DNA of 64,000 nt, taken from Enterobacteria phage T6. The notes beneath the pieces were generated by a model. That model searched no databases and had not been told where the DNA came from. It saw only the letters and a program-made list of their open reading frames with translations. The DNA lies in sequence record MH550421; one strand, 5' to 3'. The position numbers and the translations under genes were made by a program. Positions 35,958 to 37,111 of this stretch are shown in pieces. Positions within the stretch are counted from its first letter, which is position 1, and each line of letters begins with the position of its first letter.

Positions 35958-35985
35958 TTTATTCTCCTCAGTAGTTGATAGGGTA

Positions 35986-36015
35986 ATAATATCACTACCC
36001 TATCTAAAAGTAAAC
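35986..36015 (-). promoter_or_regulatory. T4-type early promoter overlapping a 9-bp inverted repeat
   Basis: Minus strand GTTTACT - 17 nt - TATTAT; inverted repeat gatagggta / taccctatc (35977-35985 and 35996-36004) spans the -10. Confidence 0.6.
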
Positions 36016-36249
36016 TTATTTTTTACGAAAAATTGATTTATTTTCTGCTGCCCATTTTTCAATAATTGCAGCAGGACCAGTAACAACAATTTTATCACCG
36101 TAATCTTCTGCGGCGAGTTGACCGAAATTATCTAATGCATCACGAAGAACTCCATGAGGCATTTCACCCATTTTATCTTTCTTGCCAGTGTAAATAAACT
36201 CAACTTTTACATCAGCAGTTTCAGCAATAAATTCTTGGTAAGTTTTCAT
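36016..36249 (-). CDS. Internal-protein-like capsid-targeted protein (ip locus)
   Basis: 77 aa from Met; N-terminus MKTYQEFIAE matches the T4 capsid-targeting sequence of internal proteins. Confidence 0.65.
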   Translation of the reverse strand: MKTYQEFIAETADVKVEFIYTGKKDKMGEMPHGVLRDALDNFGQLAAEDYGDKIVVTGPAAIIEKWAAENKSIFRKK

Positions 36250-36283
36250 TTTGATTTCCATTTGGTTTTGTTTTGATAGGGTA

Positions 36284-36313
36284 ATAGTATCACAACTAAA
36301 ACCCTATGTAAAC
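36284..36313 (-). promoter_or_regulatory. T4-type early promoter overlapping an inverted repeat
   Basis: Minus strand GTTTACA - 17 nt - TACTAT; inverted repeat atagggt / accctat flanks the -10. Confidence 0.6.
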
Positions 36314-36325
36314 AACTTTGTGAAA

Positions 36326-36583
36326 TTATTTTAAATCTTCTAATCGTTTCTTCATCTTAGAACCATTTTTAGCAATTTCTCCTGCATCGGAGCATAATGC
36401 TAAAAGTGCTTTAACTTTAGTTTGGTCTCCTTTAAAAGATGAAGGATCGACCGCAGCAGCAAGTTCTTTAATACGAGAGAAAAGACGCTCAGCTTCAGCT
36501 AAAGCCATTCCAAGCTTTACTTCCATACCGTGGGAAGATTCAGTGATAGTAGTTTTTGTAGCAAACTCTTTGAAAGTTTTCAT
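36326..36583 (-). CDS. Internal-protein-like capsid-targeted protein, second ip-locus gene
   Basis: 85 aa; N-terminus MKTFKEFATKTTITE resembles a capsid-targeting sequence with an I-x-E processing site. Confidence 0.55.
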   Translation of the reverse strand: MKTFKEFATKTTITESSHGMEVKLGMALAEAERLFSRIKELAAAVDPSSFKGDQTKVKALLALCSDAGEIAKNGSKMKKRLEDLK

Positions 36584-36613
36584 TTTATTTTCCTAATTAA
36601 TTTTGATGAGATA

Positions 36614-36643
36614 ATAGTATCACTACCTCATCAGCATGTAAAC
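36614..36643 (-). promoter_or_regulatory. T4-type early promoter overlapping an inverted repeat
   Basis: Minus strand GTTTACA - 17 nt - TACTAT; inverted repeat tgatgag / ctcatca flanks the -10. Confidence 0.6.
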
Positions 36644-36655
36644 AACTTTGTGAAA

Positions 36656-37111
36656 TTATTTTAAATCATCTGCCCAATCGAGTTTAAGAGGCTCTTTGTA
36701 TTCACGATCTAATACGACCGGAATTTGTACATCACCGCTAAATGATAAGGGTCCAACATTATAAGACAATGTTATATGCGGTGTGTAATCATCAAAATCA
36801 TGTGTAGCACCTAGTGCCCGCGCATACATGTGTCGACAGCGCAGATATTCAGAATCTAGCACAAGTACAAGAGTCGATCCATCTTGTGTTTTCCATACTT
36901 CTAAATGTCCAGAAGAAGCTACTTCAAAACTTCCGCTTGATGGAACATACGGAACATTTACTCTTGAATAACATATGGTCGAATGAATTTTTTCTCTAGG
37001 AACTGGATTAGGAACACGTAAAGAGCGCTGGAGTTCTTCCAGCGCATCAAGTGTTAATTCTGAAAACTTAGCTGCTACATAAAGACCCGTTGAAAAGTCT
37101 TTAAATTCCAT
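36656..37111 (-). CDS. 57B: 2H-phosphoesterase gp57B (Acb1-type cyclic-nucleotide phosphodiesterase)
   Basis: 151 aa; two H-x-T/S motifs (HSTICYS, HITLSY); position upstream of 57A as in T4. Confidence 0.75.

Follow-up and report, generated by a model that had tools for sequence, protein, structure and literature searches.

The window analysed here, a stretch of 64,000 nucleotides from Enterobacteria phage T6 (sequence record MH550421), contains the internal-protein (IP) locus of this phage, which on sequence grounds is located at the position of the T4 gene ipI and consists of two genes, ip5 and ip6, whose products bear a capsid-targeting sequence (CTS). Ip6 most likely corresponds to the McrBC counter-defence factor of phage Bas37 and would neutralise the host McrBC upon DNA entry, as suggested by orthology and by the knockout phenotype reported in a preprint. 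Ip5 is for its part most likely an inhibitor, as judged from Ip1, Ip2, Ip3 and Ip6, of a different modification-dependent nuclease or of some other defence that acts early. The palindromes that enclose the -10 boxes of the early promoters of the locus are most probably stem-loops of elements resembling the promoter-early stem-loops (PeSLs), and not operators. We hold with high confidence the explanation as a whole, namely an ipI-position locus, injected Ip5 and Ip6 directed respectively against another defence and against McrBC, and cassettes shuffled in a PeSL-like manner. The literature already contains the locus, the names of the proteins, their leader, the hypervariability and the promoter/stem-loop cassettes, and the target of Ip5 and the role of the hairpin would be extensions of a known kind and not a new one. 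The current understanding is unchanged, and the locus is placed firmly within the known framework.

The region 35700-36900 of the window is 100% identical to positions 67695-68895 of NC_054907 / AP018814. The genes all lie on the minus strand and are transcribed in the order 2, 3, 1, 57A, 57B, ip5, ip6, trna.4, trna.3, trna.2, the tRNA cluster and segB. The two ip genes therefore fill the interval between 57B and trna.4, the same slot as ipI in T4. A first-pass annotation, made from the letters alone, had seen two open reading frames (ORFs) with a capsid-targeting-type N-terminus; both are indeed present at this position, and only their strand had to be corrected. Overall, this first reading had seen real features and had read them largely correctly. 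The elements of the locus are the following:

36326..36583 (minus strand), coding sequence of ip5 (IpV), 85 residues, beginning with MKTFKEFATKTTITE, from the ORF list and the T6 RefSeq record
36539..36583 (minus strand), leader of ip5, MKTFKEFATKTTITE, a CTS of the T4 IPI type ending in I-T-E, which aligns with the T4 IPI leader MKTFKEFTSTTTPVSTITE
36016..36249 (minus strand), coding sequence of ip6 (IpVI), 77 residues, beginning with MKTYQEFIAE, from the ORF list and the T6 RefSeq record
36220..36249 (minus strand), leader of ip6, MKTYQEFIAE, identical to the leader of T4 IPII and IPIII in the alignment
36656..37111 (minus strand), 57B, the Acb1 anti-CBASS phosphodiesterase (Pfam PF23474, E 2.6e-60), conserved upstream flank
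35772..35957 (minus strand), trna.4, a predicted membrane protein of 61 residues, conserved downstream flank, which follows the IP cassettes in most of the related loci

The RefSeq record of T6 labels Ip5 as 'internal head protein' and Ip6 as 'internal virion protein'. The names IpV/IpVI are used in phage PST and Ip5/Ip6 in phage JB75, where a promoter is annotated ahead of each gene, while UniProt gives 'Ip5' in RB70 and T2 and 'Ip6' in VR20. Both proteins match, over their whole length, families of internal head / internal virion proteins (PHROG 3499 for Ip5, E 1.2e-49; PHROG 8111 for Ip6, E 3.2e-52), and neither matched a Pfam family. Concerning ip6, an alternative in-frame ATG is present upstream, at 36261. 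As this codon has no Shine-Dalgarno sequence and the residues that it would add vary among homologs, MKTYQ is the likely start; the upstream codon is also unused in RefSeq.

The alignment of Ip5 and Ip6 with T4 IPI, IPII and IPIII reveals that the residues M1, K2, T3, E6 and F7 are invariant in the five proteins and that the N-terminus is the sole part that they share, the leader of Ip5 being of the longer IPI type (MKTFKEF...ITE). Only ip5 and ip6 carry this leader among the ORFs of the window. The gene e (29017-29511, minus strand) is directly followed by regB (28494-28955, PF10715), and the block ipIII-ipII-denV-vs.8 to vs.3 of T4 is missing at that position. T6 thus has no second IP locus where T4 has it, which leaves ip5 and ip6 as the sole leader-bearing genes of the window. 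Each leader ends with the motif (I/L)-x-E, which we take to be the cleavage motif of the prohead protease gp21. Homologs of Ip5 with a leader of 10 residues (MKTYQTFMTE or MQTYQTF-ITE) run into the same mature start, SSHGMEV..., and this junction of leaders of differing length places the probable processing point of Ip5 after E15. The predicted mature proteins are thus residues 16-85 (Ip5*) and 11-77 (Ip6*). Following the biology of T4, the leader would carry Ip5 and Ip6 into the prohead scaffolding core, gp21 would cut after the glutamate of the motif (I-A-E10 in Ip6, I-T-E15 in Ip5), and the mature proteins of about 7.5 kDa would remain in the head and enter the cell with the DNA.

Beyond the leader, the mature domains of Ip5 and Ip6 are unrelated to those of T4 IPI, IPII and IPIII in the alignment. 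With BLASTP, the similarity to T4 IPI was limited to residues 1-26 of Ip5 and 1-14 of Ip6; the reservation of the first-pass annotation, that the two proteins could be near-identical to T4 IPI, does not apply because nothing was found outside of the leader. A search of the PDB with phmmer gave no match to IPI; Ip6 had no hit at all, and the hits of Ip5 were noise (E of at least 0.76). In a search of 5.8 billion proteins, we detected homologs only from T4-like phages (11 clusters for Ip6 and 5 for Ip5), with no cellular relatives that would hint at a mechanism. The structure model of Ip5 (predicted local distance difference test score, pLDDT, of 71) is a simple two-helix hairpin, for which Foldseek returned designed coiled coils and helical hairpins of a generic kind (E of at least 0.47), and the predicted fold of Ip6 is a generic beta-alpha-beta-beta-alpha-beta arrangement. 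Both predicted folds appear to differ from the published fold of IPI*, described as two beta-sheets with helices at both termini (PMC3012670). The isoelectric point (pI) is 9.2 for mature Ip5, with 13 Lys/Arg in 70 residues, 9.0 for T4 IPI* and 6.5 for mature Ip6. T4 IPI shares with the T6 proteins the 57B-trna.4 slot and the promoter cassette, and with Ip5 the type of leader, a similar size and a similar basic charge, whereas the mature domains have no detectable sequence similarity. T4 IPII and IPIII share their leader with Ip6 and would by analogy be injected inhibitors of the same functional class, each specific for a type IV restriction system, but they are encoded in a second IP locus, the e-denV interval, and their mature domains are unrelated to that of Ip6.

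In T4, Ip1, Ip2 and Ip3 each inhibit one distinct GmrSD type IV restriction enzyme without cross-protection (PMC12373910): IPI acts on GmrSD-CT596, IPII on GmrSD-ECOR21 and IPIII on GmrSD-ECOR17. T6 is restricted by GmrSD-ECOR21 under leaky expression and regains plating on GmrSD-ECOR17 only when Ip3 is supplied, and the authors of this work propose that all proteins of both IP loci aim at variants of the GmrSD system (PMC12373910). In Bas37 (Escherichia phage KarlGJung, MZ501089; Maffei et al. 2021, S5 table), the leader-bearing gene bas37_0260 of the ipI locus is required on the strain K-12 BW25113, and a phage deleted for it is reported to be specifically sensitive to McrBC (HIDEN-SEQ preprint of 2025, bioRxiv 10.1101/2025.11.20.689424). 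These studies agree with the anti-restriction function guessed in the first-pass annotation. In MZ501089, bas37_0260 is a coding sequence of 77 residues flanked by bas37_0261, a homolog of ip5, and by trna.4. Bas37_0260 and T6 Ip6 are identical at 76 of 77 positions (the single difference is I62V) and have the same leader, Bas37_0261 is 100% identical to T6 Ip5, and both phages carry the beta-alpha glucosyltransferase. From this identity and from the same position and neighbours, T6 Ip6 is most likely the same McrBC counter-defence factor, although the knockout phenotype belongs to Bas37 and not to T6, and the preprint does not call bas37_0260 Ip6. This link does not appear in the databases, where T6 Ip6 is annotated merely as 'internal virion protein' or 'hypothetical'.

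The target proposed for Ip6 is also that of T4 Arn (anti-restriction nuclease), a McrBC inhibitor. Arn is an acidic DNA mimic made after infection and is not known to have a capsid-targeting leader, whereas mature Ip6 is near neutral and would arrive pre-made. We also considered that Ip6 could compensate the incomplete glucosylation of T6-type DNA; this idea is left as speculation, T2, whose DNA is also incompletely glucosylated, having no ip6 and carrying ip5 with another internal protein. As pre-made anti-defence effectors, the internal proteins would act ahead of phage gene expression and help to set the host range of the T-even phages, which matters for the choice of phages for therapy. 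Concerning the neighbourhood, three counter-defence genes follow one another (acb1, ip5 and ip6), the role of Ip5 being predicted.

The hypervariability attributed to the locus in the first-pass annotation is readily seen in relatives. We retrieved via 57B, from IMG/VR, 36 loci related to that of T6. In most of them, the 57B-trna.4 interval contains one to four ORFs with a CTS, followed by many unrelated mature domains of 68-127 residues, and in a few no such ORF was detected. The combinations comprise ip5 with ip6 (L005), ip6 alone (L036), an internal protein of 102 residues alone (L035) and an ip6-like gene behind other internal proteins (L017, L019, L020). In T2 (L043, PV648364), ip5 is followed, where T6 has ip6, by the internal protein of 102 residues (MKTFKEFINEAAAPKTFVINTQ...). 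In a collection of phage genomes, Ip6 was found in 230 records and Ip5 in 494, of which 268 are at 90% identity or more (Tequatrovirus) and 226 at about 54% (RB69 and similar phages); Ip5 is among the most widespread internal proteins. The homolog of RB69 (L044, AY303349, 1438-1719), ORF127c, is 54% identical to Ip5, has a divergent leader (MKTYMNFYQN...) and lies in the e-denV interval, the other IP locus; the Ip5 family has thus moved between the IP loci.

Each ip gene is preceded by an early promoter, as had been proposed in the first-pass annotation together with a -10 region placed inside an inverted repeat of 7-9 bp. The promoters and the repeats are real, but there are three promoters and not two, and the stems are of 12-13 bp. 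The three sites correspond to the T4-type early promoter TTTAC(A/T)-N17-TA(C/T)TAT with the extended -10 TG (36642-36614, 36312-36284 and 36014-35986). The perfect 9-bp repeat starting at 35977, which had been assigned to an ip gene, lies 3' of ip6, in the promoter of trna.4. These features, with the minimum free energy (MFE) of the RNA hairpins and z-scores computed against dinucleotide shuffles, are:

36614..36643 (minus strand), early promoter of ip5, GTTTACA-N17-TACTAT with the TG extended -10; JB75 has a promoter annotated at this position
36604..36633 (minus strand), hairpin of the ip5 promoter, stem of 13 bp (G-U allowed) and loop of 4 nt, holding the -10 box; MFE -14.8 kcal/mol, z -3.5
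36284..36313 (minus strand), early promoter of ip6, GTTTACA-N17-TACTAT, also annotated as a promoter in JB75
36268..36315 (minus strand), long interrupted hairpin of the ip6 promoter, spanning the -35 and -10 boxes to +10; MFE -18.1 kcal/mol, z -4.5
35986..36015 (minus strand), early promoter of trna.4 and of no ip gene, GTTTACT-N17-TATTAT, located after the ip6 stop and followed by a GAGGAG Shine-Dalgarno sequence and the trna.4 ATG
35977..36004 (minus strand), hairpin of the trna.4 promoter, stem of 12 bp and loop of 4 nt, with the perfect 9-bp core GATAGGGTA/TACCCTATC; MFE -16.4 kcal/mol, z -3.9

The hairpin of the ip6 promoter corresponds to the inverted repeat I3, with arms of 21 nt that are 81% complementary. 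Only 1.2% of random 47-mers of the window reach -14 kcal/mol. A hairpin covers the -10 box at 4 of the 13 early-promoter-like sites of the window, three of them in the ip locus, and the other sites give no better than -10.3 kcal/mol. The hairpin of the T4 ipI promoter differs from that of the T6 ip5 promoter by one base, a C replacing the T of the T6 G-U pair. In Rfam, no credible match was found for the hairpins (only a snoRNA model, E 0.75). The fourth hairpin promoter is located elsewhere, at 32819-32873 on the minus strand (site 32865), where the repeat GGCTCAT...ATGAGCC extends to 10 bp (-14.3 kcal/mol, z -3.6) upstream of an ORF of 111 residues (32476-32811) without Pfam match. Several of the hairpin-free sites (minus strand, 33202, 24624, 20599, 18463 and others) share the start-region box TACTATACAACTATCAAC, and the early promoters of T6 therefore seem to form two classes.

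The promoters belong to larger repeated blocks, the direct-repeat family D1, which has three copies of 71 nt with 61-83% identity and a spacing of 298 and 330 nt:

36601..36671 (minus strand), promoter cassette copy 1, which enters the last codons of 57B (..DLK*)
36271..36341 (minus strand), promoter cassette copy 2, 83% identical to copy 1, which enters the last codons of ip5 (..DLK*)
35973..36043 (minus strand), promoter cassette copy 3, more diverged (61%)

The last three codons and the stop (D-L-K-stop, GATTTAAAATAA) are identical DNA in 57B (36656-36667) and in ip5 (36326-36337), as part of the repeated block. Since this DNA is shared with 57B and the RB69 homolog ends with ...EKYISGASEK, the C-terminus of the T6-type Ip5 may have been set by a recombination joint. 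Mosaic spacers are observed in T4 and T2. The T4 ipI-trna.4 spacer (L004, 11505-11610) is composed of the 5' half of the T6 ip5-ip6 spacer and the 3' half of the T6 ip6-trna.4 spacer, while the T2 spacer between ip5 and the next internal-protein gene (L043, 1700-1790) joins this same 5' half to the 3' half of the spacer between 57B and ip5. The two junctions are located inside the invariant core GTGATAYTATTA, which comprises the loop and the -10 box. The chimeric promoters with mismatched arms found in L021 and L028 are recombinants of the same kind. Repoila et al., in 1994, are said to be the source of the IP family and of the conserved flanks at the IP loci. Genes of this family reside in one of two polymorphic loci bordered by conserved non-coding blocks with signals for transcription and translation, and the D1 repeats are such blocks in T6.

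The elements of the T-even IP loci have been described as PeSL-like analogues, AT-rich stem-loops carried by T4 early promoters (Arbiol et al. 2010, PMC2839356). The usual position of the stem in PeSLs is between the -35 and -10 boxes or on the -10 box itself, and the crossovers in RB49 map to the loop (PMC2839356); PeSLs have then been extended to PST and T4 (Comeau et al. 2014, PMC4122927). The T6 ip promoters display the features of these elements, being sigma70-type early promoters with an A/T-rich block on their upstream side, a stable stem-loop over the -10 box and, further on, a Shine-Dalgarno sequence and an ATG; variable ORFs are flanked by the elements, and breakpoints lie inside them. 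The PeSLs of RB49/phi1, PST/T4 and nt-1/KVP40 likewise combine a sigma70-type early promoter and its stem-loop with an A/T-rich block, a ribosome-binding site and an ATG, flank small variable ORFs and have crossovers that map to the loop. However, the T-even IP elements are called analogues and not homologues of the PeSLs (PMC2839356), they use GTTTAC...TAYTAT with AT-rich stems devoid of G/C runs, and terminator activity and mini-circle formation have been shown only for the RB49/phi1 elements. On this model, each ip gene would reside in its own cassette, in which an A/T-rich block is followed by a T4 early promoter with a hairpin around its -10 box, then by a ribosome-binding site and the sequence coding for the leader. 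These cassettes would be inserted, deleted and swapped among T-even phages by homologous recombination between the repeated conserved blocks, and this would account for the hypervariability of the locus.

An RNA-level role of the hairpin, as insulator or processing site, is possible. The stronger form of this proposal, in which the hairpins act mainly as RNA, by attenuation or as a site of processing or 3'-end protection in read-through transcripts that insulates each ip cassette, with recombination as a side effect, seems to us less likely than not. The stems fold strongly as RNA and are followed by an A/U-rich single-stranded stretch, and the stem-loop of an RB49 PeSL placed ahead of lacZ cut the expression as much as the rrnB T1 terminator (PMC2839356). 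As read from the sequence, the own transcript of each promoter should start inside the 3' arm, so that only read-through RNA would carry the full hairpin. However, a scan for intrinsic terminators of the consensus type detected no terminator-like site, none of the three stems is followed by a U-tract, and the stems of the T-even IP loci are described as weaker and AT-rich by Arbiol et al. (PMC2839356). The late-promoter motif TATAAATA is absent from the ip intergenic spacers, the nearest one upstream being within gene 1 (37709-37716, minus strand); late supply of the internal proteins to the proheads would therefore need read-through of the hairpins or persistence of the early-made protein.

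For Ip5, the analogy with the internal proteins of known function argues for an anti-defence role. The first-pass annotation had called the two proteins possible uncharacterised effectors; they are in fact already named (Ip5/Ip6 or IpV/IpVI), and Ip6 has a function at the level of a preprint; for Ip5, no reported function was found. In a more specific form, Ip5 would be an injected inhibitor of a defence not yet tied to any internal protein (for example another subtype of GmrSD, or an early-acting nuclease other than GmrSD), and the hairpin embedding the -10 box would be a functional signal, either a recombination hotspot or an RNA insulator, rather than a passive relic; to this double proposal we give even chances. 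It is improbable that Ip5 is instead a structural or charge-balancing component of the head, such as a basic DNA-condensing protein or a scaffold filler. The basic charge of mature Ip5, its predicted simple two-helix hairpin without specific structural match, the contacts between lysines of T4 internal proteins and DNA phosphates in the head (PMC3012670) and the absence of its Bas37 ortholog from the main text of the HIDEN-SEQ preprint would fit such a component. But T4 IPI* is as basic and is nevertheless a specific GmrSD inhibitor, and every internal protein of known function (Ip1, Ip2, Ip3 and Bas37_0260) counters type IV restriction. Moreover, Ip5 is not universal, many T4-like loci being without ip5 and RB69 having it in the other IP locus, a distribution typical of an accessory gene.

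The palindromes had also been proposed as possible operators. In T6, the arms are TGATGAGGTA/TATCTCATCA in the ip5 promoter and GATAGGGTA/TACCCTATC in the trna.4 promoter, and they differ by two pair changes that are fully compensated. The relatives add the classes AGGGCTAT/ATAGCCCT, AGGGTTAT/ATAACCCT, GATGATGGT/ACTATCATC and TAGTGT/ACACTA, which gives at least six classes of arms, each with its own complement. A shift of the left arm by 5-7 nt in the upstream direction is seen in the ip6 promoter and in a set of promoters related to it. Neither the sequence nor the spacing of the half-sites is therefore conserved, among the three T6 promoters or among the relatives. The arms thus vary while staying complementary, as in PeSL-like elements (PMC2839356), and the fact that complementarity is kept while sequence and spacing vary speaks against a single sequence-specific operator and for a structure of the nucleic acid. 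That a dimeric phage or host repressor binds the inverted repeat over the -10 box and shuts off early ip transcription is very unlikely. The repeats do cover the -10 box and the transcription start, the classic operator position, and are far more stable than expected by chance, but the half-sites are conserved neither in sequence (within T6 alone, TGATGAGGTA versus GATAGGGTA) nor in spacing, and loci that are otherwise intact (L021, L028, T2) retain chimeric promoters whose symmetry is broken. The shut-off of T4 early promoters (AsiA/MotA, ADP-ribosylation, Alc) is not known to need an operator.

Several points weigh against the explanation that we prefer, of injected anti-defence proteins encoded in PeSL-like cassettes. 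Packaging, cleavage and injection of Ip5 and Ip6 in T6 are deduced from their sequences and from the T4 precedent. The link of Ip6 with McrBC comes from one preprint, an ortholog and a knockout phenotype, and direct inhibition of McrBC is putative. No reported phenotype of Ip5 was found, and bas37_0261 is not mentioned in the main text of bioRxiv 10.1101/2025.11.20.689424. Concerning the hairpins, per-column covariation in 30 distinct promoters is register-specific, with 66.7% of the cells paired versus 30-55% when the partner is slid, but is no better than column shuffles (65.0% paired; 43 of 500 shuffles as high). In an arm-swap energy test, the native left and right halves gave a mean of -11.8 kcal/mol versus -7.6 kcal/mol when swapped, none of 20,000 permutations being as good, a result inflated by the relatedness of the sequences (phylogenetic non-independence). 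Finally, the terminator role of the G/C-rich PeSLs of RB49 may not apply to the T6 hairpins, because these have no U-tract and no terminator-like site.

Downstream of the locus, the tRNA cluster (about 33400-35000 of the window, minus strand) is annotated in T6 with Tyr, Met, Thr, Gly, Leu, Gln and Arg, and that of T4 with Ile, Thr, Ser, Pro, Gly, Leu, Gln and Arg. The gene segB, which encodes a GIY-YIG homing endonuclease, is located inside the cluster of T6 as well as that of T4.

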